In this document: in pieces, positions 20,128-56,096 of the stretch
How the letters are laid out: each line of letters starts with the position of its first letter
Numbering within the stretch: position 1 is the stretch's first letter
Assembly: GCA_000091205.1 (NCBI GenBank)
Contig: AP006490.2
Source: Cyanidioschyzon merolae
Lineage: Eukaryota
Length of the DNA: 64,000 nt
Reading direction: 5' to 3' (one strand)
Made by a program: the position numbers and the translations under genes
Notes under the pieces: generated by a model
Told to the model about the DNA's origin: nothing
The model's input: the letters and a program-made list of their open reading frames with translations, nothing else
Databases searched by the model: none

Positions 20128-20299
20128 ACTCTCTGTGGGCCGATATGTTGACCAAGCCGCCTCTTCGGAGCGCCGCCCTGTGCTATGTGAAGGCGCGCTT
20201 CATGGCCCGGTACCGGCGCTCGAGGGCTACAGAGGGCTCGCCTCCGTACCCTCCCAGATGCGCGCCACTGGTACCGTACCCGCGGACCATGTGCGTCTT

Positions 20300-20950
20300 C
20301 TAGGCGACGACCTCAGCGATTACTCTATCCGCTGCATACGCCAGCGCATGCTTTATAGATTTGGTAAAGGTTTGTAGAACGTGATGTTGTCCATGATGAA
20401 ACAAGTAACGACAGTAAAATCCAGGCTGGAAATCGAGTCGAGAAATCTCGATCCGTCTATGTTCCATTCGTGCAGAGCGGTGCTGCACGCTTCACTGGAA
20501 GCGAATGCTGCCATGGCCCAAGTCCAAGTCCAGGATCCTTTTGTATCCAAAGAGAAGAGACGGGCGTCTCTCGGAGCATAGTCGATGACAGGTATCACGC
20601 TGATGTTGAATGTGATGCCATTAATGACCGAAAAGAGTTGCGGGTTTCTCCTGAGAATCCAATCCTGTATTCGACTTGAAAAGTTCAGTGAATTTTCTGC
20701 ATGAGCTTGTGAACGAGTCGTCAAGGAGCTACTTTTCACCTTTCTCGTGTTAAATTAAGCGGCATGCATCGCTCTGTCTATGAGTTGCCTTGAAACAGAA
20801 AGATCGAAAACTTGAAGAATGCGTGGTTTGAGGACGCTGCGCATCAGGAAAAGAGACGATTGGACGCCTGTCCATATGAATTGGATCACGGTATCGGTTT
20901 TTCACGAGCCGTTGTTCGAGGATATCCTAAATCATCTCGATTCGGATATC
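20300..20950. repeat. dispersed repeat family R2, diverged copy A
   Basis: Conceptual peptides on both strands align with copy B and with the inverted-repeat arms, e.g. YLFHHGQHHVLQTFTKSIKHALAYAADRVIAEV vs YLFHHRQHHVLEILYRVGQCVYERATDRVLAEW; MMLSMMKQV...DPSMFHSCRAVLHASLEA vs MLSIMKQV...DPSMHPPCIAIAHALLEA; KNAWFEDAAHQEKRRLDACPYELDHGIGF vs KNMRFERPIPKETRNVEACTYSLDHDIDY. Roughly 60-70% identity. Boundaries approximate. Confidence 0.6.
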
Positions 20951-20961
20951 GTAACGAATTC

Positions 20962-20985
20962 CAGCAGCAGCAGCAGCAGCAGCAG
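20962..20985. repeat. microsatellite (CAG)8 inside R2 copy A
   Basis: cagcagcagcagcagcagcagcag. Confidence 0.9.
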
Positions 20986-21477
20986 CCGCATATCAAAGTG
21001 ACCAATCCGAATAGGCGACCGAGAATTCGAAAACGACGACGCATGAGTCCCAAAGCCCTCATTGCTGCACGCGTATTGCCGAAGCTGTCCATCCGAAAGC
21101 AAGGATTCTTAGAACTCGTGCCCTCTGTAACTGAACAGTCTCGTCATGGTCCCGTCGGGCAAACCGTTTTTCTCGACAATCTCCCGTCTTCTTTTTCAAG
21201 TGCACTCCTTCGCTCTATGATCAGCGAGAAGGGCATTTTATCGTTTTCCACACTGGCATCCGACGATGAAGGCCCTCCAGGATCCCCGACTTCCACGTCG
21301 ATGCCGTTCGCTTGGATCTCTTATTTGTTCAAATGAACGCAGTTTGAACGCATCTGCGATGAACCGCAAAAAAGCGTCTGATGGCATTCGCCTAGATGTG
21401 GAACGCATTGGAGATGTTCATTCTCGAAACGCTCTGCTTCCCTGAACCAACTAGTGCCAGTAGAACGAGTGCTCCCC

Positions 21478-22224
21478 ATGCGGCGACGCGGTTTGCTCTC
21501 CAGTCAGGTAACTGGGTATTGTGTTGGACTAACCGGGAGAGAAACGCTTTTTGGCAAGCGCCTCTGCGCGTTGCGTCAACGCTCCACTGTACGACCTCAA
21601 AGCAGCGTCCAATGCACGCTGTCGGCACCGCAGCACGTAAGCAGAGTCCTCGCCAACCTGCTGGTAGCGGTCTCGGTGCTTGTGCAACCTGCCGTCTCAC
21701 TTGACTTGGAAACAGCACGCGAGATCGGTGAAGCAAAGCGCGCTGAACAAGAGTCACGCCTGCCCCCGCGAGTACGCCTCCCTTCTGGTGTGGTATATCG
21801 TGAACTGCGACCTGGTGACGGACTTGTTTTGCACTGGGATGAACAGCCTGACGTTGTCCTCTCGTGGGCGGTGCTGCGCCCGACAGACCTCTATTATCAG
21901 TTTGGTAGCTGGAACCGAGTTTCCCTTGAGGATGACCTCTTTCGTGCACTGCCGGCCGGAGAGGCAACCTTGGTATGTGGTCTCGCACACGGGCTCGAAG
22001 GTGCGCGTGAACACGCTCTCCGTCGCATATGGGTACCCGCTTCACTAGGATACGTTCGAGGCGATGAGGTGCCACAGCCGCGACCGGATGACTTTGGGGC
22101 TCAGCGACGATTTACTCGCCTCCGTCAACGTAACGCGGACCTGGTATTCGAAGTGGAAGTGCGACGTGTGCGCCCAAATGGAGGCTCAAAGCTTCATGTT
22201 TGTCCGCTTGGATCAGAGCAATAG
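21478..22224 (+). CDS. FKBP-type peptidyl-prolyl cis-trans isomerase with long N-terminal targeting-like extension (lumenal/organellar FKBP-like)
   Basis: ORF 21454..22224 (GTG; first ATG 21478). FKBP fold signature in the C-terminal 120 aa: GVVYRELRPGDG, LVCGLAHGLEGAREHALRRIWVPASLGY, LVFEVEVRRV. About 100 aa of Arg/Ser/Val-rich leader with a hydrophobic stretch (LANLLVAVSVLV). Confidence 0.6.
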   Translation: MRRRGLLSSQVTGYCVGLTGRETLFGKRLCALRQRSTVRPQSSVQCTLSAPQHVSRVLANLLVAVSVLVQPAVSLDLETAREIGEAKRAEQESRLPPRVRLPSGVVYRELRPGDGLVLHWDEQPDVVLSWAVLRPTDLYYQFGSWNRVSLEDDLFRALPAGEATLVCGLAHGLEGAREHALRRIWVPASLGYVRGDEVPQPRPDDFGAQRRFTRLRQRNADLVFEVEVRRVRPNGGSKLHVCPLGSEQ

Positions 22225-23146
22225 GTCCTTCGATGCCGATCTCGAGTGATGGCTTGGTGATTTGACGTTCACGCTTTCGCGATGCGCTCATCGAACGGTG
22301 TGCACGAGACTTTGGCATTGTTTCACCGCCGTGGCGACAGCTGCATCGACACTTTGCAGTTCCAACTATATATGAAGTGTTACTCAATGGCTCGTGATCG
22401 CCGAATGGTTGTGCCTACATTGGTGTCGGCATGCAAGCAACCATGCATTTCCTGTGAATCGAGAGCATGCGAAGCCGTCCTGCGGGTACACCGAGCGGAT
22501 TGCACGATCGCCCGTGCGATTCCGAGGCCTTGGACGGGCCGTCCGCGAACCCGCAGCCTGATTCAGCATCGACATTCCGGAATGGTGTGGCCCGATGATA
22601 CGATCCCGTGATGAGCGAAACCTCGCGGACTGGACGCTTGGTATCAAGAACGCAACACGTGCCACCGCTAGTGCTACTGGTAATCCCGATGTGGCCGCAA
22701 TCACCACGGAGGCTTGCTGCAGAGACGCTCGTGCACCCTACAATTCGCAGTACTTCTGCCGCTACTTGTGCTGCTGCACTTGCATCGGTAACGAATCCCG
22801 GGAGCAATGCTTGCGCCCAAATGATTTCTAGGGATCTGAAATGGGTTCGACCGTACTCCATATCGAAGTTTTGTTCAATAAATGATGCGTTTGCTGGTCT
22901 GTTTCTTATCTTGCTAGAGTGCTTGTCATCGCTCATCGCTCAAAAGCACCTGTTACGAGCCGCTCCCTGGTTGTACCTGGATACCGCTGGATCACATCAG
23001 GATCGCGATGCAACACCAACAAGTCATCTGCGGTCGCCGGAAACGATCACCATCACGATGGATGCCGATGTCCATGGCGGGAGCGCAATGAAGCATGCTC
23101 CTTTAGAAACGGGTTTTTAAAACCCAATCACTGCCGGTATTACTTC

Positions 23147-24056
23147 TACTCAGTAGTATCGAAGCATGGAACACCGCAATGTTTGACCATTTGCCCAGGA
23201 AAATCGTTGTCTATGGAGGTGTGTATGGCGCTCCAGCCTTGATGCGTTGCAGACCCGTACCACACCAGTGCCTTTTCCTCCTCGCTACTGATTGTTTTCA
23301 TCGAAAGTGTGCGACTTTTCAGCGCAATGTCTACGGTGACTAGAAAGCGATTCCGTCGGATATTCGCGGCGTGCAAAGCCGCCGGACGCTGCGGCAGCAA
23401 GAGACATTTCCCGATCTCGGACGAGTCGCTCAAGTCTCTATTCGGAACTCGCCTGCAAGCGCTGGTGCTGGTGGAGTCATGCCCTAGCAAGCCTCTGACT
23501 TTCGATTGCCTCGCCATCTGGCGTGCAGTCAACTTGCCCTACACCGTCTCGTGTGTCCGGGTGTGTTTCACGCTCTGCGACTCTGCTAGGCTCACGGAGC
23601 GCTCTTGCTTGTGATGCGTTGATCTAGTGCGGGACGCATCGACGGGCGTCGTGCAGCATCGATTGCTGAACGCGTTGTACGCTGGCGTCGAATGAGCGGG
23701 AGTGCACCCTCTGGGAGCTGCGGTGCGTCGATTGCCGCAGACTACCACGAGACGAGGCGACGCATCGGTCATGACCTGGTCCAGTGGCTCGAGCGAGCAG
23801 GCGAAAGCACGTGTCGTGTATCCGTACAACCGAGACGATTGGCAATGCCGTCGCTGCCTCATGTACGCCAGCCAGGGATTGTCAATGGCAGCTATATCGA
23901 CGCTCTTGTGATCTCTGCGTGAAAGACGCATACGAAGCGTTCCAGCGTGTTTGCTACGGTGCTTCGAGCATCAGGATAGGTTCTGAGGCTGTCACTACAT
24001 TTCGTCGTATGCCTGCTTGCAACCATCATACCCGAATGCGGATTACACCGAGCGGT
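23147..24056 (+). repeat. dispersed repeat family R1, copy 1 (3'-truncated relative to copies 2 and 3)
   Basis: Starts tactcagtagtatcgaagcatggaacaccgcaatg. About 98-99% identical to 36869-37945 and 46001-47074; ORF-track peptides are identical bar 3-4 substitutions. Identity ends after ...caccgagcggtg. Confidence 0.85.
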
Positions 24057-26473
24057 GTGAAAAATCGGGCAGTACGATATTGTCTGTCCCGGGCATTCGT
24101 TGTGTTCCCGCATTCTGGCTTGATCGAAAAGGTTCTAAAGGAATCAGGACAGCTGGTAAGCTTGCCTCCGAACCTTGTACAAATACTTATTTAACGAGGA
24201 TCGTCAAGTCGAGGTAAGCTAAAAGTGTCTTCCTAGAATAAGAAGCTATGCGGTATTGAATCTAGTCCTGCATTTCCCTGTTTCTGGGTTGCTCCCCGTT
24301 GGCGTCTTCACTCAGAAAGGCCATGAAACAGTGTACAGACGGTTTATCCTTACACTCTCTGCTCGCCCTCTTTTCGCGGGAATTTCGCCTCCTTTGTCCG
24401 GTGCTTCTTTCTCGCTCTTCTTCTTCTGCTTTACGTGGCTGGGCAGCTCTGATGTGGCCGCTACGCTCCATGCTTGTTCCCTTACCTTGAGATGCAGACG
24501 CACTGGGTAGTCGATATGTCCGAAATTCGTTTCTTTTAAGTGTGTACTTACGATTCTTCTAGGTACTTTCGTCGCCTTCTCCATCGCGAGCACGTCCACG
24601 GACAGCAGCACGGCATGACGCTCCATCTCGCATTCGGGCAGTGTATCCCCAGACCAGTCCATTGCTGGTGAAGACAGATCGAGATTTGTCAAAGAGCGAC
24701 CGGGCACGCTTCGGTGTCCTTGATCCGAACGACTCTTGTTTGGATCCACAAGCGCAGAAATGGCATTTGAAAACAGAGGAAACGCCGTCGACTAGCTTCA
24801 ACCAGGGAGATTAGCACGACACAAACCGCAGGTCACGGCGAGATGAGGCGCATGCACCTTCGCCGCTTCTCTTTGATGGAACCTGACGTGGTCCAAGCAC
24901 AGGACAGAGGATAGCGGCTAGGAGAAGCTACGAACTGCTTCGACGAAGAGAGCGTTGCTGAACAGTCCTCCCTGTTCGGCAGTTTGTAGGAGACGACGCG
25001 ATAGCATCGTTGCTGGGGGTGATAGCGTCGGGGTGCTCGCTTGACGCGTCTTTACGAGCAGCGGATTTTCCGTCTTTGACCGCTTACATCCAGGTACACA
25101 GTGTCCTCCGTCTGCCTTCTCAACGAGTAAGACGAGTACCCCGTTCCTCTTGGTATATAGGTTCCCGTTGCGGTGCGAAAGCGATGGTGTGTGTTTTTCA
25201 AAGCGCGACGGTCACAAGTCGAAGCGTACTTTTTTCGTTCTCCATCTGTGGCTCGTTATCGCGGCTCGCATCAACGATTCGGAAACTTCGCGACGTGTGG
25301 CTTCTTTGATCGGAATTCCGAGAGAAACCATCGGGTGCAATGGATGAACTTGAAGACAGTCCTGTACGCAGACTTTGATCATGCCTATTTTGGGTGCACA
25401 ATGTTCGAAATACGGGCAATGAAAAGGGTGCACCATCCGTCTCCTGATCATAGAATAACTGACTTGTACCAGTTAGGTCGTCTTTCGCAGAACTATAGTG
25501 CCAGTACCATGCACTTCCCACTTATATCCCCAATATATAGGATGCATTCCGTTTGTTGAATACCAGCGAGATAAACAAATAAAAACAAGAATGGCCCGCC
25601 GGCACTGGTGCTCCAGAATTCCCTGTTATGCGTATGAAAAACTTGCACCGAATCGGTGCGAAAGCATTTGCGAACGTTGCTGGCGACGGGAGGTCCTCGA
25701 CCACTGCACACCGTGCGTTCGAGGTAGCTCCCGATTGTCCAGTGTTCCGCAATCCTATTGGCATTCGCTTTCTAGAACGCCGCTCCATTTCGTGCCACGG
25801 GACACGATGCGAGGTCCGGTGCCGAAGCTGGCCTGGCAGCGATAACTCCATCAAACAAATGCGAGCATGCAAGAGTTGCGAAGCGTCCACCATACAAACA
25901 GTCGTCCGCAGGTCCTGCGATAACATCGGGATCAAGGCATTCGGCGCCTGGAAACAGGCAATGCTGCCCCGTGCCAAATCTTGCGCATCATCTGTTATCA
26001 CTAGCATTTTCTCCACAGACAAAGCATTGGCAACTGCACCTGCGTTTCCCGGAGGCACACGCGCAAGGCCAGGAATGCACCTCAGCGCCCGCCATCGACA
26101 AGTTCCAGGTCTGAAAACTCCAAAAAAGCGCATCAGGAAACTGGGGTGTCCACTCGGACACTCTCCTATAGGCGAGCTTCTTGAAGTGCGCTCATGTCAC
26201 ATGCAATGTCACGCTTGAGGTACGCACACGCTTTTCCATTTCCCAACACCGAAACGCCGCCAGTCTGTTTGGAACCTGTTGCAGTGCCTGCTATGCTTCG
26301 ACACCCCTGAACCTGGTTCAGGTCGCGAGCCCTGCCCCAGGGTACGCACGGTGCTAGGCACTGCACCGCACCTGCCGTGTGCGGTATGCACGAGGCGGGT
26401 TCAGTCCAGTGGCGTTCGTACGTGCCCAGCTTCCAGAGTACCCATACTGCACCGTCCCTGGTCCTCTGAAAGG

Positions 26474-26755
26474 TCAACGTCGCGAGCCGTATACCGCTCG
26501 GTTTGCCGGAGAGCACGCCGGGTCGGTGCGCTGCACCCAAAAGGCCACCGCAGCCGCAAGTGTCACACTGGTGAACGCTGCGAAGCGGAAAGTTCGCCAT
26601 CGCTCCACCGGTTCGTAGCCGTGATAGAGTCGGGCCAACGACCAACCTGCGAGCAAACCGCAAAAACCAGTCCACAGGGCTGTTTGCCGAACAATGTCGT
26701 CGCAGCGTGTAGCCGCGGGTCGCATGAGCGGAGGTCGCTCCTCAGAGTTGTTCAT
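26474..26755 (-). CDS. small hypothetical membrane protein (two predicted TM helices)
   Basis: ORF 26474..26794 (GTG; first ATG codon 26753-26755), 94 aa. Two hydrophobic segments (ALWTGFCGLLAGWSLARLY; FAAFTSVTLAAAVAFWV). No homology recognised; could be spurious. Confidence 0.2.
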   Translation of the reverse strand: MNNSEERPPLMRPAATRCDDIVRQTALWTGFCGLLAGWSLARLYHGYEPVERWRTFRFAAFTSVTLAAAVAFWVQRTDPACSPANRAVYGSRR

Positions 26756-34712: not shown

Positions 34713-36868
34713 GCGCGATCAGGTGCGAGGAGCCAGGCTCTATTGCTGGAAGTGGCGCTCGTGCGTTGTCAGCACGCCCTCGATCTGGAAATGCGATTTC
34801 GAAAGTGTGTCCGAAGCCTTTTGCACTTGCCAAGCTCGTGGACGAACGAAGGTCAACAGGAGGAGAGAATCCCCAGTCTCTGTGTTCTGACGGATCAGAG
34901 CGGACACGTTCCACTATTCTCTTGACTCTGGATTGATACAGTGGCCTCGAGCAAATCCTGTTTTCAAGGCCACTCAGCGCCGCATGCGGCAGTCTGGCAC
35001 AGAGCAGCCAAACGGGCACGCGTCGCCGTCACCGCAGCAGTAACGGGAACTTTGGTCACGAGTTTCCCCCGGAGACTGGAAACAGCCTCGAACCCGTGTT
35101 TGTTTGGTGAGCGGTAAGCACCAGAGAAATAAGACGCGCGCAGCAGTCCGCCCCGTGTCCGTAGCTGCTCTGTTTGACGCGCGTCACAGGGACTCGGAGC
35201 GCTCTACCGACCACAGCTAGCGACCAACGAGCAGCGAGGCTCCTCGCTGGCCGCAGCGAACAGTTGCCTAAAGCGATGCGTTATCGGTGCGTGCAGGCGC
35301 CGAGATGAAGAGCGCTCCAGCCCCAACGAAGTCACGCGCGGAACCAACAGGCCGTGTAAAGAAGTCGCTCAACACACACACACACGTTCTTGGTCTACGA
35401 CGGCCAGTTTCTTGCCCTATTGATTCCTTAAGCGTTCTCCAGGCGTTTCCCGATAACCCAAGACTAGTGGCAAACTATACACTACTGGGCCCGAAACCGA
35501 GTTCGAGAGTCATGCAACCGTCTGACCGAATCGCGAGCTTCGGCAACGCCGGGTGTCGCGAAGACTTGTGGACAAAGCGGGGGATGTGCTGATTCCTAAT
35601 TGAGGGTGTTTTTGGCGCCAATTTTCATGAGGCGCCTTGGGAGCGCTCCCGAGATGTGCGCTCCTTCTTTCGGATTGCATCTTTCCTGCTCTACAAGACG
35701 TTTCCATGGACCATGGATCCCAGACTGCTCACTTGGTAGCAGCATTTGGAGAAGCATCCTTCATTCTGCACGCTAGCTTCAAGTTCTATTCCTTGAAGTC
35801 CCAGTCGAAGATACCGGACGTTCCTCACGTTCAACAGTCGTGCGCAACGTGCCAGCCACGGGCGTTCGCCATAGCGCCTGTGGCGCCACTGCGTTCATAG
35901 GACGGAGACAGAACGGCATTGTAGTACCACTGGGGGCGTCGGCTCGAGGTTCGGATTCCTATCGCATTAGATTCGCAGAAATCTCGGCGATGCTGTGCTA
36001 ATCCGTGAGCGATCACGCGGCTGTGCTGCTCGCACGTCGCGCGATATGCGTGATCTTGGATAGCGCGCTCCAGTGGTGCACTGCAACGTCATGCTCTGCC
36101 GAACAGAGACTTTGTGTTCAGTCGTCTCAAATCAGAGCATTCTACGGCATACGAACACGAGTATCGGTTGCGGTGCTATACAGAACCTATGACCGTCTTT
36201 GGACCAGGTGCGACTGCTGTGGAAAACAAGCGCCTCTTGGATGGAGTTTCGCAACACTCCCAATAGTGCGGTGGACTCGAAGCATCCGTTCGAACGGCAG
36301 GGTTGCATCTGGAGCGACCTTCGATCGAAGTCATGTTCCACGCGTATCTGCGTGCTCGGCTCCGGTTTGGTGCCTCTGTTCCGTGCAGAGGCACCTGAAG
36401 CGATTGGGACGCGAGACTCGGTGCGCGACCAACGTATGTGCCACGGGCGAACAGCCGCGACTTTGTTTCTGGAATGTTTAGCAGGATCCGGTATGCGATA
36501 CAGAGAAAACGAAAGCCTCCTTGATGATGTATTGGCGACGCTTTGAGGCGTAACGCGGATCTACGAACTGGTGCGCACCAGCAACCCCATTCTAGAGCAG
36601 TCGCTTTGCCTTGATCGCTGACATGAGCTCAGAGCCATGCATCTGCGGCATGGGAACCAACGATCATGCTCCTTAGAAAATTATCTTGCTTGTGGTTTGG
36701 ATAGCGGCCTCAGCATATTTCCATAAAAGTTCCCAGAAGGCCCAGCGCGTGCTCCTACGGGTTTTTCGCTGCCGATGCGATTCGGCCGCCACGTCGCACG
36801 TTGGGTTGCATCCCGTCGCGCGAGGCTTCCGAGCCTCCTGCAAAAGAAACTATTGCAGGAGCTAGATA

Positions 36869-37945
36869 TACTCAGTAGTATCGAAGCATGGAACACCGCA
36901 ATGTTTGACCATTTGCCCAGAAAAATCGTTGTCTATGGAGGTGTGTATGGCGCTCCAGCCTTGATGCGTTGCAGACCCGTACCACACCAGTGCGTTTTCC
37001 TCCTCGCTACTGATTGTTTTCATCGAAAGTGTGCGGCTTTTCAGCGCAATGTCTACGGTGACTAGAAAGCGATTCCGTCGGATATTCGCGGCGTGCGAAG
37101 CCGCCGGACGCTGCGGCAGCAAGAGACATTTCCCGATCTCGGACGAGTCGCTCAAGTCTCTATTCGGAACTCGCCTGCAAGCGCTGGTGCTGGTGGAGTC
37201 ATGCCCTAGCAAGCCTCTGAGTTTCGATTGCCTCGCCATCTGGCGTGCAGTCAACTTGCCCTACACCGTCTCGTGTGTCCGGGTGTGTTTCACGCTCTGC
37301 GACTCTGCTAGGCTCACGGAGCGCTCTTGCTTGTGATGCGTTGATCTAGTGCGGGACGCATCGACGGGCGTCGTGCAGCATCGATTGCTGAACGCGTTGT
37401 ACGCTGGCGTCGAATGAGCGGGAGTGCACCCTCTGGGAGCTGCGGTGCGTCGATTGCCGCAGACTACCACGAGACGAGGCGACGCATCGGTCATGACCTG
37501 GTCCAGTGGCTCGAGCGAGCAGGCGAAAGCACGTGTCGTGCATCCGTACAACCGAGACGATTGGCAATGCCGTCGCTGCCTCATGTACGCCAGCCAGGGA
37601 TTGTCAATGGCAGCTATATCGACTCTCTTGTGATCTCTGCGTGAAAGACGCATACGAAGCGTTCCAGCGTGTTTGCTACGGTGCTTCGAGCATCAGGATA
37701 GGTTCTGAGGCTGTCACTACGTTTCATCGTATGCCTGCTTGCAACCATCATACCCGAATGCGGATCACACCGAGCGGTGGAAAATTCTGAACAGCATCCT
37801 TTGCTTTCCGTACAAGTGTTTGGCGGCGGCTTATTGATTTAAGGGTTCAGCGACGGTCATGATGTTCTTAAACCTGGGATACACGCGCAGCACCAAAGCT
37901 CTTTCAGCATCTACCATCATCGGTTGAAAATGAGTCCCGATGCTG
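36869..37945 (+). repeat. dispersed repeat family R1, copy 2 (full length, about 1.08 kb)
   Basis: Same 5' end as copies 1 and 3; shares an extra roughly 165 bp 3' segment with copy 3 (...ggaaaattctgaacagcatcctttgc...catcatcggttgaaaatga). No recognisable protein in any frame. Confidence 0.85.
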
Positions 37946-42709: not shown

Positions 42710-43194
42710 GCAAGCTGTGGTCACCGTTCACGCCGACTGAATACCGCAACCCCATGCTTCAGTTGCGCTTCCCCGGTTCAAGTGTTAAGGTCGATAGGCC
42801 GTGGAGTGGTTGCGTTTTTATTGGCTCGGAATCTCCGCTGCAAGCAAGCTATTCAACTATTTGGCGCTGCGTCTGGTGTTTTTCTTGAAATGCCCAGTCT
42901 CGTACTCTACCCGTATGAGAATAAAACGGAACTGGTCCAGTAAGCAGAGTTGGGCATACGCTCGAGATTTTGAATGTGTGCCCGGCATGTTCAAAACAAG
43001 TCCATGCGGGATATTCTCTGACTGCATTCGTTACCCCGCTCGTCTCACAAGCTGTGCATACGTCGGTCTCTCATGTGCTTCCAGCTCCGTCGTCGTTATT
43101 GGAGTAAATCTGATGGCAGCGTTTTAGTTCGGACGTCGCTGCATCCGACTGTAGTCTATGCATTACACGCGCCAGCGGGCGTTGCGATCCACGC

Positions 43195-44100
43195 CTCATT
43201 TGCCATGCTCAGCTTCTTTATAGACAGTCCCGATGCAGTCGCCAAAGCGGTGACACTTGATTATGGTTAGCTGCGCTCACATGCTCACCATACAAGCCGT
43301 CTCTCAGCGAGCGGCCTCTGTGGCGCCTGAACGCTTACTCCATCACGCGGTAGATGTCGGTTTCTGGGTCAGAAGGCCCGCCTCGATGCTCGAATCTGTT
43401 TTTCGCTGCCAATGGCTTGCCCTCCGTCACGGGCTTCTTCGTTGCGATCCACTCGGCGAGTACTCTGTCCGTTGCACGCTCGTACACACACTGTCCTACT
43501 CGATAGAGGATTTCCAGGACATGGTGCTGTCGATGATGAAATAAGTATCGAGTGGAAAATCCAGACTGGAGAACAAGTAGAGAAATCCTGATGCGTGTGC
43601 GCTCCCTTCGTGCAACGCAATGGTGCACGCTGCACTAGAAGCAATTGCTTCGACGAATTGAACCAAAGTCCAAGGCCTTTTCCCATGCAAGCTGAAGAGA
43701 CGGGAGCTTCTGCTTGCGTGTCGCGTGCCAGGCACCATGTTGCTGTCGAATGCCGTTTCCTAGAAAGTTCCAGTGAGAGAGAGGGGCGTGTTGGTATTTC
43801 CCACGGAATCGATTCCTCTAGTTGATAGCTTCAGCATACTTGTGGGATGCGCTTATGGACAAGTCGTCAAGGAATTACATCAAGTTTTGTTGCTCGTCGT
43901 ACCAGCAGCACGAATCGCCGCGCCGTCGACTTGCCCCGACACAGCAACATCAAAAACTTGAAGAATATGCGATTTGAGCGTCCCATACCCAAGGAAACGA
44001 GAAACGTGGAGGCTTGTACATATTCGTTGGACCACGATATCGACTACAATATGAATACTGGTTCGAGGGCATCCCCAATTATCTTGATTTCGGTGGCGTC
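43195..44100. repeat. dispersed repeat family R2, diverged copy B
   Basis: See copy A. 43195-43330 also aligns with the sequence just outside the left inverted-repeat arm (tcatttgcca...cagcggtgacacttg...). Boundaries approximate. Confidence 0.6.
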
Positions 44101-44498
44101 TTCAATGCCATCAGCAGCGCCTCTAAGCAGCCACACCGAGAACACGACCGAGACTCCCGGAACGACGTATGAATCCGTAAGCCCATGGTGCTGCACTTTG
44201 ATGTCGAGCATCTATATTTTGAACAAGATCGAAAAAGTTTGAAATGATGGAACAGAACGAACAAGACAGTACCCTAAATTTACCGTACACGGATGTGCAA
44301 CACTCCTGCACCATGCGTGTGACGCCACGCAACGCCACGCGTGGCTACGCTACCCGCGACGCGCCAGCGAGGTTGCACGTGCTGTTGCAGCGGGCGCTTG
44401 CGTTGAGCGCGTTTCCCTCTTTTTCTTCAGCCGTTACTCTGCAAGTTTCTGTTCCGTGAACGTTTCCTTTTGAATCATTGGGCACTCTTGCGTTCGCC

Positions 44499-45998
44499 AT
44501 GGACGGATTGTGGGCACGGAAGGACGGCGGAAACGGTCTTGTGGACGAGCAGGGACTCCGTGCACCACTCTCGGGTGGACTCGGTTGGGAGTCCAGGATG
44601 CGTTCCCGCTGGAATGACTGGCTGCGCAAGCTCGACGTTTACCCCAAGACTGTCGAGGACGTGCGCTTACGTTCTGTGACAGGAGGCATCATCGCTTTAT
44701 TTTCGTACATTTGCATCGGTATTCTGGTCGTTTCAGAGTTTCTGCGGTGGTTGCAGCCCCAGCTCCACTCTAACGTGCTCGTGGACGCGCGCTCGATTCT
44801 CGATACCGAGCCAATCACGGTAGATCTGGGCATAGATCTCCTCGCTGTCGGTTGTGACGAGTTTAGCCTTGACGCGCTCACTGCGAACGGCGCGCAGCTC
44901 CCCAACAGTGTTGTGGAGCTGCGTAAACGCCCATTGGATGCGAGCGGTCAACCTGTGATATTTCCCCGAGGTGCATTCGGACGCAGTCGTCTGCGGAACG
45001 AGCGAGGTGGCGTAGCGCCAGCACCTCAGGCGCTAACGGAAGACCCGCCAAACACACAGCAACTCGAAGGGCGAGTATCCCAGGAAGTACGCGCGCAACT
45101 GAAACAGTATCGCGAAGAGGCGATAGCTTTCCGTGATCGCCTTGCAGCGTTGAACAAGACCGGTGTTGCGTATTGTGGCTCCTGTTATGGTGCTGTGCCT
45201 CAAACAGATCAAGTCGGGGAGGCGAATCAAATAACGTCCGGAGTATGCTGCAACACCTGTGATGAAATTCGCGTCCTGTACGAGGAACGGAACTGGGCAT
45301 TCGATCAAGTGCTTCGAACGGCGGAGCAGTGTGCTGAAAAACGCTACTTGACGCTGCTTCACGAAGCCGGTCGTGTTCAGTCTGGTGGCTGTCGAGTGTC
45401 CGCACGTTTACAGCTACCACGGGTGGCGGGCAACTTTCACTTTGCTCCGGGCAAGGGCCATACGCACCGTATGGGCCATCATGTTCATTCGGTAGATGAT
45501 CAGTTGCTCCACCGCACCTATAATTTCTCGCACCGTATTCGGCATTTGCGGTTTGGTCCGCTGTTCCCGCACCAGCAGAATCCACTTGACGGCGCGATGC
45601 GGATTCTGGAGCAACCGCCGCCGGGGTCACCTTTTGGCAACATGGTGCTGTATTATTGCAAGCTTATACCGACAACATACCGTCGAGACCGCCAGCGCGG
45701 CGACGCACTTCGATCGATGGAGTACGCAGCCGCAGACCTGACACAATCATCGGAACAGGATCGGGTGGGAATCACGCATAGTACGGGTGCATTGCCAGGA
45801 ATATTCTTTTTTTACGAACCTCAGCCTTTGCAAATCGCGTACTTTGAAGGTCGGATGTACGGTTTGCTGCATTTCATCGTCCAGCTATGTGCCATTGTTG
45901 GAGGCGTTTTTACCGTAAGCAGTATGATCGATCGTTTTGTATTTGGGGCGGGAACCTTCATTCGGGCGCAGAAGCGCCGGCTCGGCAAGCTTGGGTAA
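44499..45998 (+). CDS. ERGIC3: ERGIC3/Erv46-family ER-Golgi intermediate compartment protein
   Basis: ORF 44478..45998 (TTG; first ATG 44499). N-terminal LRKLDVYPKTVEDVRLRSVTGGIIALFSYICIGILVVSEF (ERGIC_N plus TM); lumenal Cys-rich domain (YCGSCYGAVP...CCNTCDEIR); a C-terminal TM and FGAGTFIRAQKRRLGKLG tail. Confidence 0.8.
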   Translation: MDGLWARKDGGNGLVDEQGLRAPLSGGLGWESRMRSRWNDWLRKLDVYPKTVEDVRLRSVTGGIIALFSYICIGILVVSEFLRWLQPQLHSNVLVDARSILDTEPITVDLGIDLLAVGCDEFSLDALTANGAQLPNSVVELRKRPLDASGQPVIFPRGAFGRSRLRNERGGVAPAPQALTEDPPNTQQLEGRVSQEVRAQLKQYREEAIAFRDRLAALNKTGVAYCGSCYGAVPQTDQVGEANQITSGVCCNTCDEIRVLYEERNWAFDQVLRTAEQCAEKRYLTLLHEAGRVQSGGCRVSARLQLPRVAGNFHFAPGKGHTHRMGHHVHSVDDQLLHRTYNFSHRIRHLRFGPLFPHQQNPLDGAMRILEQPPPGSPFGNMVLYYCKLIPTTYRRDRQRGDALRSMEYAAADLTQSSEQDRVGITHSTGALPGIFFFYEPQPLQIAYFEGRMYGLLHFIVQLCAIVGGVFTVSSMIDRFVFGAGTFIRAQKRRLGKLG

Positions 45999-46000
45999 TA

Positions 46001-47074
46001 TACTCAGTAGTATCGAAGCATGGAACACCGCAATGTTTGACCATTTGCCCAGAAAAATCGTTGTCTATGGAGGTGTGTATGGCGCTCCAGCCTTGATGCG
46101 TTGCAGACCCGTACCACACCAGTGCGTTTTCCTCCTCGCTACTGATTGTTTTCATCGAAAGTGTGCGGCTTTTCAGCGCAATGTCTACGGTGACTAGAAA
46201 GCGATTCCGTCGGATATTCGCGGCGTGCAAAGCCGCCGGACGCTGCGGCAGCAAGAGACATTTCCCGATCTCGGACGAGTCGCTCAAGTCTCTATTCGGA
46301 ACTCGCCTGCAAGCGCTGGTGCTGGTGGAATTATGCCCTAGCAAGCCTCTGACTTTCGCTTGCCTCGCCATCTGGCGTGCAGTCAACTTGCCCTACACCG
46401 TCTCTTGTGTCCGGGTGTGTTTCACGCTCTGCGACTCTGCTAGGCTCACGGAGCGCTCTTGCTTGTGATGCGTTGATCTAGTGCGGGACGCATCGACGGG
46501 CGTCGTGCAGCATCGATTGCTGAACGCGTTGTACGCTGACGTCGAATGAGCGGGAGTGCACCCTCTGGGAGCTGCGGTGCGTCGATTGCCGCAGACTACC
46601 ACGAGACGAGGCGACGCATCGGTCATGACCTGGTCCAGTGGCTCGAGCGAGCAGGCGAAAGCACGTGTCGTGCATCCGTACAACCGAGACGATTGGCAAT
46701 GCCGTCGCTGCCTCATGTACGCCAGCCAGGGATTGTCAATGGCAGCTATATCGACTGTCTTGTGATCTCTGCGTGAAAGACGCATACGAAGCGTTCCAGC
46801 GTGTTTGCTACGGTGCTTCGAGCATCAGGATAGGTTCTGAGGCTGTCACTACATTTCATCGTATGCCTGCTTGCAACCATCATACCCGAATGCGGATCAC
46901 ACCGAGCGGTGGAAAATTCTGAACAGCATCCTTTGCTTTCCGTACAAGTGTTTGGCGGCGGCTTATTGATTTAAGGGTTCAGCGACGGTCATGATGTTCT
47001 TAAACCTGGGATACACGCGCACCACCAAAGCTCTTTCAGCATCTACCATCATCGGTTGAAAATGAATCCGGATG
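46001..47074 (+). repeat. dispersed repeat family R1, copy 3 (full length); begins 3 bp after the ERGIC3 stop codon
   Basis: Near-identical to copy 2 over about 1.07 kb. Its 5' end lies immediately 3' of the ERGIC3 TAA (45996-45998), i.e. inside the presumptive 3' UTR. Confidence 0.85.
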
Positions 47075-48971
47075 TTCGATTTGGTACTTTTTCGCACCTG
47101 TGCGGTCGATGCTCCTCGCGACGAGGCAACGCGGCGACGCTTTGCGGCATTCGGGGAAGCGTGTCTGCAATTCTGTGAACCTAGGATCCGGCCGTGTCAC
47201 ATCTTCTGTCATGAGTATCGGATGTGATGTCCCGTGGAGGTATCATCGCAGAATTTCAGACGACTACGGACAACTGGCACCTTTTGCGCCTACAACTCCT
47301 GCGAATAATTGCTTGACGAGGTGCGTCGAAACGAGGTGCGCTAGGCAAGCCCTGAACGAGTAGCAAGCCACGTGATCTCCAGTGGCGTCCAGAATGTTTC
47401 CCGTTCGCGAACCAGAACCGCATTTCTATGGATCGATCAGCGTCGAATGGCGATCGATAACAAAGAGAACGCCTTTCACGGCGCCGAACCTGGAGCATAG
47501 GTTGGTACGAAATGCAGCGCAACGCTGATTTCACGTACGAACTCGCTGAGCGTTTTTGCGTGATGCACAGTGACCTTTTCAAAGGGCAGGAGAGAAGCGT
47601 ATGTGAGATTGAAGGCATAAAAAGTGCTTTGACGAGGCAGGAGCTGTTGAATGCTGGCGCCTATTCGGCGATTTGTCGCCCATAAAACCATGCCATCGAC
47701 GCTGGTGCTGTTGTTGCCGGTACGCCCCCTTGTCTCTGTTTTATGATGTGCGGTTCGCCGCTCTTCGCATGCCCATATACATGTCTACCAGCTCCCGCGA
47801 ATAAAACCCCATCGAGTGAGACGAGCACCCGTACCTTCGATAACCATAAGCATTTGTTATCCGTTCCGCAAGCGACAATGTGCAGGTCAACGCGGAACGG
47901 TGCCCTACCGAACCGCATCTCTGCTGTTGTCCGTCCGTGTCTCTTCATAGGTGTTGATTTCAATTGTATTGAAACTTCATTTGCTGGGGCTCCTCTCGTC
48001 GTTTTGCTTTCAGAATACATGGATGCGCATGGTTAGACGAGGACAGAATCGTATAGACCTAGTTTGTACATTTTCGTTTCGGGTGCATATTGTTCAGGAT
48101 ACGAACCACGAGAAGCGTGGTTCATCCACCTTCTCACCATACAATGACTGCGTTGTGAGTATGCGCTGGTAGAGCCCGCGTTGCAGCTCGGGACCCCTGT
48201 GCTGAAGCGCAATTCCCTTTTCAGCAGGCGCTGCATACGGTCAGTATAAAAAGTCCCATGACTGTGGAGGATATGTTAATACACCCACTAGCAGACGACT
48301 CCCAGTCTTTTTTCACCAGCCGTCTGGTATCGGTTTCAGTTTCTCCCTGCACACTTCGACCCTGCGATGGTGCTTCACAAAAATCTCTCGCCTCAGCTCC
48401 GCATACCGTCTGATACGAATGGCGGCGTTGAGGTCTCGGTGCTCGAACCTCTTGCATGCGTCGACGCTGGTTGAACTCACTATTGCAAGGATTCCTGGAA
48501 TTCGCGCCCGATGTACCACTACAGCGTCGTCACCCTCCCGTCGGGAAAGCACCTTTTCTCTCTTATCTCCCGTCTTTCTCCTCTTCATCATCACTTGCTC
48601 CTCTCCGCTCGGTTACCGGTGAGAGCAGATTTCTTTTCGTTCTTTTTCGGCAGCCGGCGGCACTTGCCCCGCCCGGATCCTCGACTTGCATTTCCTTGCC
48701 AGTTCTTTCGATATTTTATTTCTTGAAATAAACGCGTTTCTTTACGCCCTTACGAGAAGACCTTCCCAGGGAGAGAGGGATCTGTGGATCAAAGGCGAAA
48801 TATGCCCCTGGTTTGTCTCCGTGGTCTGAGCGCTTCAACGATTCGCACAGCGGGGCGTTCATTACGTTTCGGGATGCAAAACGCTCCATCGATGGGGTCG
48901 GACAACGCAACGTACCCAGGAATGAAAAGCAGCTCGACGTCTATAGAATCGGGGAAACAGCGAACGCAAGG

Positions 48972-49409
48972 GTAATGGTGAGATACCACGTTGTCCACTG
49001 GAGGGACGTCATCAGACGCCAGAGCAAAGTCCTCAATGGTTCGGCAATGTGGTTGTTGCTGTTGGACGAACCCTCTCTACGAGCGACACTGAGGCGGCCA
49101 AATGAACCCACTACTGCCAGAACAGATGCTAAGGTCGTTGTTCTCTTCGAGCTCGATTGTATATACAACGAGCTCTCCGCTCCGCCAATGCCCATATACG
49201 TTCCCAACGGTTCGTCCGAAGCAACTCTCATCGGCTGGAAAAGCAAACCGACGTTCCTGCGCCTCATAGAGATTGTGACGTCCCTTGAATCCTTGTCGTT
49301 GCGATTTCGGTGGAAGATGGCCGTGCGTGAACAAGCACTGTTTTGTGCCAGTATCCTAGTGTTTAGCGGACCACCCGAGCAAGCAGTCGAATTCCAGAGA
49401 CCCGTGTGA
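48972..49409 (+). CDS. hypothetical protein (weak call)
   Basis: ORF 48813..49409 (TTG; first ATG 48972). Non-repetitive sequence (VVLFELDCIYNELSAPPMPIYVPNGSSEATLIGW) but no family recognised. An overlapping out-of-frame ORF exists. Confidence 0.2.
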   Translation, partial: VMVRYHVVHWRDVIRRQSKVLNGSAMWLLLLDEPSLRATLRRPNEPTTARTDAKVVVLFELDCIYNELSAPPMPIYVPNGSSEATLIGWKSKPTFLRLIEIVTSLESLSLRFRWKMAVREQALFCASILVFSGPPEQAVEFQRPV

Positions 49410-51777: not shown

Positions 51778-52916
51778 CTGGGGAGTTCCTCGCGTCTGTC
51801 CGCGGCGAAAAATACCAGGCGTGCACGCCGTAAGCTAAGCGCTAGCAGGTACGCTTGCAAGCGGCGGATGCGCGTGTCGCGGCGTGGCTGCCGGTGATTT
51901 TCTTTCGATGGAAAAATATCTCTATGAACCATGGATCCCAGATTGCGTGATGGATATTTGCATACGGGAATGTTTCGTTTATGCTGCTATCTACCTTCAA
52001 GTTCCATTACCTATACTTCCTCTCGGATGTGCTGGTCGTTTCGTACGTTCTATCGTGCGCCCAGTACCTGCCTTGAGCGCTCACAATAACGCCTATAGCG
52101 CAAGTGCGGATGCTGCTCAGAGACAGAACGGGTTTGTCATGCCCGTTTGGGCGTCGGATGCAGGTCAGGATATGGACCTGTTTCCATGACAAGTGCAGCT
52201 GCCTTCTCGTGGCATTATCGCAGGAACGGAGAATCTCCCGTACACATCCCGATGCGAATGATTTCCATCGTGCACTGCCGCTGCAGATTAAACGTGTCAA
52301 CGAAAGCGCGAACATTTGCTTCAACTCCTCAAACGTTGCACCAGTGAAAGACCGAGCCTGCTTATCACACATGCAATGGAAACCGGGCTGGCTCTGTCAA
52401 ACAGATATGAGCTTCGCCCGCTGTACCTCTTTGCGAACAAAATGGAAGGGGCGCCCACCGAACGAACTCGGGCATACATACTCAAGTTTGGGTCTCTTCC
52501 CCATGCCATCAACACCAGCAAATTCGGGCGTTTTCTCCGACTGCTCTCTTTGCCCCTCTTATCTCCGTCTCTGAAGATGCACATCCCTACGGTGCCTCTG
52601 GCTCTGTTGTCAGCAGTCGAAGGATGTTGATGGCAGCGTTCAGGTGCCAATTTCGCCGCTCGCGGCTGGTGTCGACGCGTCTGATCCGCCGATGGAAGTT
52701 GCGAACTACACGTCATTTGCCACTTTCAGCTTCGTTACATAGAGCCTCGGTGCGCATTTCGCAGCGGTGACACTTGGATGTGGTCGGTTGTTCCTATGGG
52801 TCCACGGTGCCTCCTGTTTCTCCGTAGGTCGCTATGTGTCCCGTGAACGCTTGCTTCGTCGATTGGTATATGCCCTTGACGTCTACCCAGGGCTCTGGTT
52901 GATGTTAAATCCGCTT

Positions 52917-53803
52917 CTGCACCTGGTGCCGATGCTACGGACCCTGGCTTCTTCTGGGCCACTTGGTCGGCGATTACGCTGTCCGCTGCACATGGGGGCA
53001 CACGCTGATCCGCTCAACAGAGGATCTGTGGAACGCGATGCTGTCCATTATGAAACAGGTGCCGGAAAGAGACCCCAGCCAGGAGCTCAAGCCGCAAAGT
53101 ATCGATCCGTCTATGCATCCTCCGTGCATAGCGATTGCGCACGCTCTACTGGAGGCGGTCGCTGCGAGGACTGAATTCCGAGTCCGAGACCTTTTCTCCA
53201 TCCACACAATAGAGACGGGAGCCTCTGCGAGTATATCCGATGAGAGGAACCGCGCTGCTGGTGTCGAATGCAACAATGTCGATGACCGCAAGCAGAGTAG
53301 GATATGTCTCCAGAACGGAATCGAATATTCGACGTGAGAAGCTACGGGATATGTCTGCAGAAGCTTGTGCCGTCGTCGCCACGGGAGGACGCCAAGTTGT
53401 TTGCGCTGGAAATCTGGCGGCGCGCGTTGCCGCACTCCACGGATTGCCCTGAAACAGAACGATCGAGGCTTTGAAGAATGCGTGATTCTCGTAAACTAGA
53501 CGTAGGAGAAAGGAGTGGCGTAGAGGCTTCTGGGTGTCATCTGGATCCTGATATCTGGTATTTCACGCGACCTTGTTTGATGGCGTCGCGAAACATCTTG
53601 ATTCCGGTGACGTTACCAAATCCAGCGGCCAAGCGTGGAAGGAGCCACTCGGAAAACACGACCTAAAATCCTTAAACTACCTACGAATTCGTACATCCTT
53701 ATCGGTTCACTTGGAATATCGAGGCTGTACCAATAAAAAATTTCGGAAAAGAATCGAACTGCAAGAACAGAGTGAGCAATGTAGCGTTCCATTTCAATCT
53801 GAC
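52917..53803 (+). repeat. left arm of a large inverted repeat (R2 family member); about 98% identical to the reverse complement of 55212-56096
   Basis: Identity runs from ctgcacctggtgccgatgcta... to ...ccatttcaatctgac. ORF-track peptides in the two arms are near-identical on opposite strands (MRDSRKLDVGERSG... at 53478+ vs 55348-; the 124-aa ORF at 52963+ vs 55677- differs at 4 residues). A weaker similarity to R2 copy B extends outward to about 52715. Confidence 0.9.
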
Positions 53804-54283
53804 ATAGATATATCGTCCCAGGCGCCGAGCACTACGAGAGCGATGCAATCGAAGGCTGCTCACGGGCACGCGATCCATCGTATCCCTCAGATTTCGACTC
53901 GATGCAAGGCATCTCAGCGTGAACAACAGCGCCCGTGCCTCGGGGGCGCTGTTTCCGATCGGCGTGATGCGCACCACGATTTTGGGAGCGCCGCCCCAAA
54001 AGAAGTTGCAAACGCCGCCACCAACATCGGGATTGGGGCGAGCGCCGTCGCAGGAACACCACAAATGCGCCTCTGCGCGCATTTCACCATCATCTAGATC
54101 GCCAGATTTGGATGCTTTACTAAACCGGAGATCAGAGCATAGACACCGAAGCGCAGTGGACATGATCGTAATAAATAAATCTGCATTGTCGCTTTCCGCA
54201 GAGAAAACGAACAAGCTTCTCAGCGTCACCACGCGGTCTTCATTGCGCAAACGAACGTAACGAGCCTCGTGTATAAAGTAGAA

Positions 54284-54955
54284 ATGGCGGTCTCCAGGGT
54301 GCTTATTGTGGCTTGCCTGACCTTTCTAGCAGCGTTTGCATCGCTTGCTCAGGCATATGAATACAAGCAGCAGTGCCAGGTAGAGCAGGTGTGTGCGCAA
54401 TATGTGAACCAATGCCAGCAGTATGAGAATGTATGCCTTCAGCCATATCAGAAGTGCAAGCAGTACGAGCAGATTTGCGTGCAGCAGCAGCAGCAGTGCA
54501 AGAACTATCAGACTGTGGAGAAGCCAGTGAAGGTCTGTGTCCAATACGAGAAGGAATGCATCCAGTTTGCATACAAGGAGCAGTGCAAGCAGCAGGAGCA
54601 GGTGGTTCAGCAGCAGTACTGGTATCGTCGCTGGTACAAGCAGGAAGTGCCGGTGAAGCAGGTGTGTCAGAAGCAGCAGTACTGCGTCCAGTATCAGGAG
54701 AACAAAAACAAATGTGCGCAATATGGAACACAGTACCAGAAGATTCAGGAGTGCGTGCAGTACGAGAACCAATGCGTCCAATATGGACAAGGCAAGTGTC
54801 TTCAGTATGAACAGGCTTGTCAGCAGTACGGGCAGAAGTGCGCGAACTATCAGCAAGTGTGCAAACAGTACCAAAAGGTGCTCGTCTGCAAGAAATATCA
54901 GCAGGAATACAAGAAGCAGTATCAGCAGCAGTACTACGCGCAGGGATACTACTGA
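54284..54955 (+). CDS. secreted Gln/Cys/Tyr/Lys-rich periodic repeat protein (about 13 C-x-[Q/N]-Y units, 20 Cys), no recognisable homologue; candidate extracellular structural/cross-linked matrix protein
   Basis: ORF 54269..54955 (GTG at 54269; first ATG 54284). MAVSRVLIVACLTFLAAFASLAQA is a textbook signal peptide. Mature part: YEYKQQCQVEQVCAQYVNQCQQYENVCLQPYQKCKQYEQICVQ...CVQYENQCVQYGQGKCLQYEQACQQYGQKCANYQQVCKQYQKVLVCKKYQQEYKKQYQQQYYAQGYY. The gene sits alone in the 1.4-kb spacer between two 0.89-kb inverted repeats. Confidence 0.6.
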   Translation: MAVSRVLIVACLTFLAAFASLAQAYEYKQQCQVEQVCAQYVNQCQQYENVCLQPYQKCKQYEQICVQQQQQCKNYQTVEKPVKVCVQYEKECIQFAYKEQCKQQEQVVQQQYWYRRWYKQEVPVKQVCQKQQYCVQYQENKNKCAQYGTQYQKIQECVQYENQCVQYGQGKCLQYEQACQQYGQKCANYQQVCKQYQKVLVCKKYQQEYKKQYQQQYYAQGYY

Positions 54956-55211
54956 AGGAGCTTTGCGATGGACGTGGTGGCTGGTCATCTCTATGTGAGC
55001 GGACAGAGGACAGAGTCCGCGGAGTGACGTGGGAGTGCTAATGGACAGTATATCTGATGGAAGTGTACAAGGACGTTCATTGTAGTGCCTTGAACAATTA
55101 TAAATTCTGAATTTCGTCATCATTTCAAAGCGCCCTTGTCTGAGTTGCCATCTGCTGCCCTGGCCCGTGGATTGTCGCATCGCTTTCATGGCGCGTCTGC
55201 TTCTCTGTGAC

Positions 55212-56096
55212 GTCAGATTGAAATGGAACGCTACATTGCTCACTCTGTTCTTGCAGTTCGATTCTTTTCCGAAATTTTTATTGGTACAGCCTCGATATTC
55301 CAAGTGAACCGATAAGGATGTACGAATTCGTAGGTAGTTTAAGGATTTTAGGTCGTGTTTTCCGAGTGGCTCCTTCCACGCTTGGCCGCTGGATTTGGTA
55401 ACGTCACCGGAATCAAGATGTTTCGCGACGCCATCAAACAAGGTCGCGTGAAATACCAGATATCAGGATCCAGATGACACCCAGAAGCCTCTACGCCACT
55501 CCTTTCTCCTACGTCTGGTTTACGAGAATCACGCATTCTTCAAAGCCTCGATCGTTCTGTTTCAGGGCAATCCGTGGGGTCCGGCAACGCGCGCCGCCAG
55601 ATTTCCAGCGCAAACAACTTGGCGTCCTCCCGTGGCGACGACGGCACAAGCTTCTGCAGACATATCCCGGAGCTTCTCATGTCGAATATTCGATTCCGTT
55701 CTGGAGACATATCCTACTCTGCTTGCGGTCATCGACATTGTTGCATTCGACACCAGCAGCGCGGTTCCTCTCATCGGATATACTCGCAGAGGCTCCCGTC
55801 TCTATTGTGTGGATGGAGAAAAGGCCTTGGACTCGGAATTCAGTCCTCGCAGCGACCGCCTCCAGTAGAGCGTGCGCAATCGCTATGCACGGAGGATGCA
55901 TAGACGGATCGATACTTTGCGACTTGAGCTCCTGGCTCGGGTCTCTTTCCGGCACCTGTGTCATAATGGACAGCATCGCGTTCCACAGATCCTCTGTTGA
56001 GCGGATCAGCGTGTGCTCCCATGTGCAGCGGGCAGCGTAATCGCCGACCAAGTGGCCCAGAAGAAGCCAGGGTCCATAGCATCGGCACCAGGTGCA
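55212..56096 (-). repeat. right arm of the large inverted repeat (R2 family member)
   Basis: Reverse complement of 52917-53803 with about 2% mismatch. Inner junctions are sharp: 53803|53804 and 55211|55212. Confidence 0.9.

Follow-up and report, generated by a model that had tools for sequence, protein, structure and literature searches.

What kind of sequence is the diverged repeat family, here called R2, that lies in a 64,000-nucleotide (nt) stretch of the genome of the red alga Cyanidioschyzon merolae, and why do two of its members form an almost identical inverted pair when the others have drifted far apart? The window, by which we mean that whole 64-kb stretch, is part of chromosome 8 of C. 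merolae 10D; two of its long open reading frames (ORFs) are identical to eIF3g (BAM79827) and RecQ (BAM79823). The original prediction, made from the letters of the sequence alone, described four R2 copies and suggested that they may be a decayed family of small genes rather than a transposon. We put a probability of about 0.85 on a different answer: R2 is a dead, non-autonomous, ~1.4-kb family of the Tc1/mariner/IS630 (ITm) group, which would have been internally deleted from an element carrying a Fanzor1 gene and later re-homogenized in places by exchange between copies.

The similarity among the four stretches originally described is co-linear homology, as was claimed, and not patchy low-complexity matching. 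In self-BLAST and MAFFT comparisons copy A is 65% identical to the left arm of the inverted pair over 703 nt (E 6e-29) and 65% identical to copy B over 540 nt (E 5e-23). The family is larger than four, and the extents first given for its copies were too short. An nhmmer profile built from seven independent copies, with the right arm R left out, delimits six members, of which E, A, B and L are near full length (~1.4 kb) and R and F are partial:

1-306, plus strand: copy F, 3' end only (model 1079-1377, matched from base 2), cut by the window edge
5300-6717, plus strand: copy E, full length, new relative to the original prediction
19658-21098, minus strand: copy A (model 70-1391)
42901-44289, minus strand: copy B, full length, decayed, with 4 stops in the transposase frame
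52407-53804, minus strand (the transposase sense): copy L, full length (model 1-1390); its 5' 889 nt (52915-53803) are the left arm
55212-56102, plus strand: copy R, the right arm, the 5' 890 nt only (model 2-891)

The same model gave no further R2 match in the window. Pairwise identity among the old copies is about 57-65%, and each copy is ~73-79% identical to the R2 consensus. Runs of (CAG)n had been attributed to both A and B; copy A does contain (CAG)10 at 20962-20990, none was found in copy B, and copy E has a (CAG/CAA)n run at 5852-5892. The direct repeats at 19938-20127, thought to flank copy A, turn out to be an internal ~131-bp tandem duplication of that copy (19932-20001 and 20063-20132), at which the nhmmer model splits. 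Roughly the same Fanzor-derived stretch (model ~990-1146) is duplicated in tandem in two independent copies, copy A (19932-20132) and a copy on a metagenome contig, L008 (4783-5105).

Conservation within R2 had been placed at the nucleotide level, on the grounds that matching peptides occur in several frames, and this holds, since substitutions between copies show no three-base periodicity or third-position bias in any block. No copy is free of stops or frameshifts, and in all of them the catalytic motifs are mutated. The absence of codon periodicity, together with this universal damage, means that the present R2 copies evolve neutrally. Conservation varies little from one end of R2 to the other (0.45-0.66) and is highest where the protein motifs once lay, and ORFs of 100-190 amino acids (aa) occur in several copies.

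What the ancestor encoded becomes legible when copies are averaged. Pfam searches of individual ORFs of R2 copies returned nothing, or only matches with E about 0.1; the weak DDE_3 hint of this kind in copy A (E 0.13) comes from an ORF on the strand opposite to the left arm's orientation, in the frame quoted in the original prediction. A four-copy consensus reaches 24 bits for DDE_3. A seven-copy consensus, made from four window copies and three hot-spring metagenome copies, keeps about 270 codons in a single frame, scores 39.1 bits for DDE_3 (PF13358; E 8.4e-10; Pfam cut-off 28.6) and matches the NCBIfam IS630 transposase profile (NF033545) at E 2.5e-12 over profile positions 24-260 of 299, some 230 residues in one frame. 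Growth of the signal as more independent copies are averaged is expected for decayed descendants of one coding ancestor. The consensus retains the first catalytic Asp (..AIDETAF..) and the second (..CFIMDSIAFHKS..) and breaks at about 'YSP', just before the third catalytic residue, so that the D, D, E/D triad is incomplete in R2. The frame that the original prediction had singled out (...CFIMDSIAFH...) is the ancestral coding frame and contains the second catalytic Asp motif of the DDE transposase. In copy L, where it is split across three reading frames, the transposase-derived part was located by tblastn with intact DDE_3 proteins:

52947-53729, minus strand: transposase-derived part of copy L, a helix-turn-helix (HTH)-like N-terminus and a DDE_3 core with the first two catalytic motifs

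Those intact proteins came from an exhaustive profile search, with window peptides and metagenome fragments, of 1.84 billion representative proteins (E <= 1e-3). It retrieved 245 relatives, the majority of them short ORF fragments that are other decayed copies; several are intact, at 304-342 aa, with DDE_3 scores of 66-102 bits and HTH matches, so that a full-length relative encoding a recognizable protein has now been found. In tblastn these proteins match the real copies themselves, at E 4e-18 for A, 3e-11 for B, 3e-8 for both L and R, and 7e-4 for E, which gives the DDE_3 assignment support beyond the consensus. Residues 3-74 of one of them, P0094, match 53729-53508 in copy L (tblastn E 2e-4); Pfam HTH models did not match the R2 consensus, which the IS630 profile matched from position 24. 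The contigs that carry the intact transposases P0094, P0164 and P0169 are just 1.0-1.4 kb long (ENA and Logan), too short to see the gene that follows. The consensus also aligns with the transposase of Mariner PUl-1 (E 2e-8), and in the alignment the two Asp motifs and the PPYSP region line up; this was a BLASTP comparison with X in place of stops, and tblastn gave no match, probably owing to the stop codons. A PDB search with the transposase consensus returned nothing meaningful. Judged by sequence, the restored R2 protein is a Tc1/mariner/IS630-type DDE_3 transposase.

The 3' third of R2 reads in another consensus frame than the transposase, as ...VVLGYG...VDIYERLT.VKCHRC...C.KC...NRDLNAAINI.... 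In copy L it corresponds to the following:

52563-52904, minus strand: Fanzor1/TnpB C-terminal fragment of copy L (…KCHRC…HLNAAINILR…), with 3 stops

The C-terminal motif of Fanzor1 proteins has been defined as [TS][TS]-x-x-C4 zinc finger-x(5,50)-RD (PMC3627910), and R2 carries it across copies as ..LT.vKCHRC..x..C.KC..x..NRDLNAAINI; each Cys pair of the zinc ribbon is intact, in different copies, and the RD.NAAINI motif is likewise recoverable across copies. The tail matches Pfam PF07282 (Cas12f1-like TNB, the TnpB zinc ribbon) at E 1.3e-4. A profile of R2 tail peptides aligned by hhalign to Fanzor1 C-termini (the CMe-1 and PUl-1 sequences and the CMe-1A consensus were taken from the supplement of Bao and Jurka 2013, PMC3627910) gives a probability of 95.8% and E 8e-9 over 111 columns, with the GYG, DE.RTS, zinc-finger and RD.NAAINI positions in register, and the tail of one metagenome copy matches CMe-1 directly (E 4e-6). 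The ~140 residues of the tail correspond to CMe-1 residues ~543-691, which leaves out the RuvC-I Asp and the N-terminal domains of a full-length Fanzor1. We therefore read the 3' third of R2 as a predicted gene fragment that is the C-terminus of a Fanzor1, with the RuvC-II Glu, the C4 zinc ribbon and the RD.NAAINI motif.

The ends of the element were defined from metagenomes. Scanning JGI metagenome contigs with the consensus peptide yielded 61 R2 loci, ~25 of them distinct, in Cyanidioschyzon-type contigs from hot springs. Most cover the whole model and so have the same transposase/Fanzor junction in common. R2 copies are dispersed, with dozens lying between unrelated genes. Alignment of ~20 independent ends brings out one consensus of ~25 nt, CACCCGTGTCAGA(T/A)TAAAATGGAAC, at the 5' ends and, as its reverse complement, at the 3' ends; outside it the DNA is unrelated between copies. 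Terminal inverted repeats are therefore present at the level of the consensus. A flanking TA was seen at 5 of 21 5' ends and 4 of 18 3' ends (9/39), where chance would give about 5% by a rough estimate that was not computed, and where the ends are heavily decayed; these flanks fit a TA target duplication, short of proof.

We propose the following layout for R2. Between two terminal inverted repeats of ~25 bp lie ~800 nt that stem from a DDE_3 transposase, then ~400 nt that stem from a Fanzor1 C-terminus (the part with GYG…VD.YE.LT, the C4 zinc ribbon and RD.NAAINI) and then a short tail. The ancestor of R2 would have been an autonomous element with a transposase followed by a Fanzor1 gene on one strand, as in PUl-1 of Pythium, from which an internal deletion would have removed the C-terminus of the transposase and most of Fanzor1. 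The deletion model is suggested by the PUl-1-type gene order together with two kinds of metagenome locus. In copies of the L031 and L047 type the match to R2 runs to model ~785 and continues into a transposase C-terminal motif (..DPID..) with no Fanzor tail, and at L068, L069 and L074 an R2-like transposase is followed by a long Fanzor1-like region on the same strand. The short derivative would then have spread in trans by cut-and-paste transposition, and all copies would have decayed neutrally since, to be inert now apart from serving as dispersed homology.

Against this background of old copies, the two arms stand out. The original prediction drew attention to their near identity and to the contrast in divergence within one family, and both are real: L and R (52915-53803 and 55212-56099) are 98.4% identical over 889 nt, with 14 differences evenly spread, versus about 65% among old copies. 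The arms enclose a spacer and an ORF:

53804-55211, no strand: spacer between the arms, 1408 nt, not R2-derived
54269-54955, plus strand: ORF in the spacer, a predicted signal peptide followed by ~200 residues of Gln/Cys/Tyr-rich repeats (..CxQYxxxC..)

The identity of L and R spans exactly the stretch that R possesses (model 2-891). It starts within 7 nt of the 5' terminus of the element and ends where the R2 homology of R ends, nhmmer detecting none beyond 56102. A second high-identity tract joins copies E and F: bases 1-191 of F are 97.4% identical to E 6414-6604, after which identity falls abruptly to about 60-74% and both sequences can still be aligned to the family. High-identity tracts that are bounded by shared homology, or that end inside old copies, are expected from gene conversion or unequal crossing-over of nearby repeats; they point to gene conversion or ectopic recombination and not to recent transposition, and a cut-and-paste origin of R is unlikely because R lacks a 3' terminus. 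Recent homologous exchange between neighboring copies would have homogenized L and R over their shared stretch, and the same process would explain an E/F tract that stops inside the element. Metagenome contigs orthologous to this region (L001-L003) end inside the L copy. It is quite possible, though we think it the less probable account, that the arms arose by a recent inverted partial duplication of L or by recent mobilization of an L-type copy in trans. The even spread of differences at 98.4% identity, the ending of R2 sequence with the arm in R, and outermost 7 nt of R without clear similarity to the terminal repeat would all suit such an origin; however, a random duplication breakpoint would be unlikely to place the inner limit of identity so close to the 5' terminus, a cut-and-paste product should have both termini, and the neighboring E/F tract, ending inside two otherwise diverged copies, is a signature of recombination. 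A composite or foldback transposon was also considered for the arms and rejected, as R is 3'-truncated, both 5' termini face inward and the outer flanks are unrelated.

Several results weigh against the reading of R2 as a re-homogenized, internally deleted transposon. The consensus sequences are reconstructions, and the IS630 match of the seven-copy consensus, at 46.8 bits, lies far under the NF033545 equivalog cut-off of 100, for which reason we do not regard R2 as a bacterial IS630. The PF07282 score of the tail (22.5 bits) is below the curated cut-off of 26.3, and searches with the Fanzor-like piece of NCBIfam and PDB sequences, by consensus or profile, as well as a word-indexed protein search, found nothing. 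One of the terminal-repeat consensus sequences was positioned with a seed pattern and is to that extent biased, although pattern-free views were also made; an inverted-repeat search within single R2 copies found no terminal repeats, and the TA flanks are enriched but far from universal. An intact progenitor with both full genes was not recovered in the metagenome and protein searches. Finally, this window alone cannot separate gene conversion from recent partial duplication.

Other identities for R2 fare much worse. That it is a decayed small host gene family, as first proposed, we find scarcely credible. The proposal was right that the copies are decayed and once coding, and the short ORFs in several copies and the peptide similarity along one frame speak for it, but there is no intact copy and no codon-position bias of the kind a host multigene family would have, and what the consensus restores is a transposase of the DDE_3/IS630 type with a Fanzor fragment behind it. 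The terminal inverted repeats and the dozens of dispersed copies among unrelated genes, with at least ~25 distinct copies in metagenomes, are those of a transposon fossil. A different possibility is that R2 is a mere fragment of a repeat already described in this genome, its DDE_3 match being spurious. A 'WSV486-like' repeat, present in 253 copies in C. merolae according to Nozaki et al. 2007 (PMC1955436), was recognized by Bao and Jurka 2013 as the Fanzor1 element CMe-1A, described as unclassified and without terminal repeats, its copies ~80% identical to their consensus (PMC3627910). The identity of R2 copies to their own consensus is near that figure, R2 has a Fanzor-like tail, and CMe-1A fragments adjoin copies A and L. 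Even so, derivation from CMe-1A (or TE-N2_CMe) is very improbable: the published 3169-bp CMe-1A consensus, by blastn, matches fragments elsewhere in the window and has no DNA match to R2, the CMe-1 protein and the R2 tail share just 24.5% identity, and the DDE_3/IS630 match extends over ~230 residues in one frame and is backed by intact transposases that match real copies.

We consider it equally far-fetched that R2, or its Fanzor tail, has been kept for a function, whether as an omega-RNA-like scaffold, as a regulatory element or through arms that control the enclosed Gln/Cys/Tyr-rich gene. The omega-RNA of TnpB/Fanzor systems sits at the 3' end of the Fanzor gene, by the right terminus. The Fanzor 3' end does lie beside the right terminal repeat in every full-length R2 copy, and the 5' ends of the arms face a gene, but conservation is flat and highest over former protein motifs, RNAalifold on seven tails gives a consensus fold of -1.8 kcal/mol with no meaningful covariation, and Rfam is empty here. 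The tails folded are decayed, and an ancestral RNA is possible. A broader scenario, which we offer as speculation and think improbable, would derive all Fanzor1 repeats of Cyanidioschyzon from Fanzor1-carrying Tc1/mariner transposons: R2, a young family at 23147, 36866 and 45998 described below, and perhaps CMe-1A. R2 would then be a satellite that kept the Fanzor 3' end (omega-RNA and right end) as a requirement in cis, with the transposase and an RNA-guided Fanzor supplied in trans.

The closest known systems to the proposed ancestor are the Fanzor1-carrying Mariner elements PUl-1 and PUl-2 of Pythium ultimum and PGv-1 of Phaeocystis globosa virus (Bao and Jurka 2013, PMC3627910). Like R2, to judge from its remnants, they have a Tc1/mariner-type transposase upstream of Fanzor1 on the same strand, and their ~24-33-bp terminal inverted repeats correspond to the ~25-bp repeats of R2; they have TA target-site duplications, of which the TA-enriched flanks of R2 may be a trace. 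The transposase consensus aligns with that of PUl-1 and the tail with the Fanzor C-termini of PUl-1 and CMe-1. Unlike these 3.6-3.8-kb elements, R2 is 1.4 kb long, lacks the transposase C-terminus with its third catalytic residue and about 80% of Fanzor1, is pseudogenized in every copy and has a red alga as host. R2 resembles the IS630/Tc1/mariner DDE_3 transposases at large (PF13358; NF033545) in how its DE.. and D..H motifs are ordered and spaced, in a region that matches the N-terminal portion of the IS630 profile (with no HTH domain match) and in a PPYSP-like motif at its break point; the intact proteins closest to it are the uncharacterized ones of 304-342 aa, found on short contigs of public assemblies (ENA and Logan). 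CMe-1A/TE-N2_CMe (~3.2 kb, abundant) resembles R2 in being Fanzor1-related, of similar age (about 75-80% identical to consensus), in the same genome and often adjacent, and differs in being reported without terminal repeats or transposase, whereas R2 has terminal repeats and a transposase remnant. In the C. merolae genome Nozaki et al. 2007 counted eight class II elements, whose BLASTX matches to bacterial transposases were weak (PMC1955436). These may equal or overlap R2, the comparison being a general one as neither sequences nor a family description appear in the paper; a weak resemblance to bacterial transposases of the IS630-like type would be in keeping with R2, whose six members in 64 kb and at least 25 metagenome loci suggest more copies than eight. 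In the literature searched, which did not cover Repbase, no mariner-type family of C. merolae was found to be described as joined to a Fanzor fragment. R2 is accordingly a new family, or at any rate one not yet described, within a kind already known, the non-autonomous derivatives of Tc1/mariner elements that carry Fanzor1.

Fanzor-related repeats other than R2 also occur in the window. Fragments of CMe-1A/TE-N2_CMe, 71-87% identical to the consensus, lie at:

21255-21373, minus strand
35693-35949, plus strand
48291-48735, minus strand, with an internal deletion that joins CMe-1A ~968 to 2842
51928-52157, plus strand
61685-62279, plus strand, the 5' ~600 bp of CMe-1A, as in TE-N2_CMe

The 5' end of copy A abuts a CMe-1A fragment. 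That fragment shares the deletion junction just mentioned, 21099-21190 matching 48485-48576. R2 and CMe-1A often adjoin, at the A and L copies of the window and also at metagenome loci L025-L028 and L049-L051. At L016-L018 a 5'-truncated R2 copy begins within ~50 nt downstream of a CMe-1-type Fanzor C-terminus, the two being called as one 342-aa ORF (protein P0065). A second repeat family (23147-24066, 36866-37942 and 45998-47074, minus strand) has three copies that are 98-99% identical over 0.9-1.1 kb and contain a degenerate Fanzor1-like C-terminal half, 34% identical to CMe-1 residues 510-696 (E 1e-21); the 36866 copy extends back to CMe-1 residue 353. Its catalytic motifs read VDAS.. in place of VDEF.. 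and NRDLSDSSEI in place of NRDFNAAINI, its frame is interrupted by stops, and its high identity ends inside the element, the pattern seen in L/R and E/F. Weak remnants of mariner/IS630-type transposases at 24873-25379 and 48855-49049 (both minus strand; tblastn E about 1e-3) lie upstream of Fanzor1-like repeats, each on the same strand as the repeat, and the second retains ..VDNVVSHH..IPGYVALSDPIDGAF.., the C-terminal part missing from R2. Pfam gave no match to 24783-25439, 48795-49199 or the Fanzor-like region of the 36866 copy.

The rest of the window is packed with genes, and its housekeeping ORFs are uninterrupted. tRNA and Rfam scans of it gave zero matches. The Gln/Cys/Tyr-rich ORF between the arms has no Pfam match, and neither it nor several other ORFs of the window that were looked up has an exact entry in the protein collection. 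On the strand opposite to it, an ORF of 371 aa is probably its Leu-rich antisense artifact. An ORF of 918 aa (8509-11265, plus strand) is acidic, Ser/Thr-rich and of low complexity, and Pfam finds no domain in it. A Fanzor identity was weighed for it and rejected, since TnpB motifs are absent and the protein is of low complexity, host-like and apparently disordered. At 14517-14657, just upstream of the 5' end of the PNPase gene, a 68-bp unit is repeated 2.1 times in tandem at 87% identity.

C. merolae is cited as nearly transposon-free, transposons making up 0.7% of its genome and class II elements numbering eight (PMC1955436). R2 indicates that elements of Tc1/mariner type, bearing terminal repeats, were once numerous in this alga: six members of the family lie in this 64-kb window, and related contigs hold at least 25 loci. 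Current understanding of transposons or of Fanzor is unchanged by this, and the gain is a refined annotation of a model genome. The family is also a clean local case of old repeats re-homogenized by recombination, a process that can distort ages estimated from copy identity and give rise to inverted repeats around genes. Being physically joined to a Fanzor1 gene, R2 offers a concrete candidate for the vehicle by which Fanzor may have spread in red algae.

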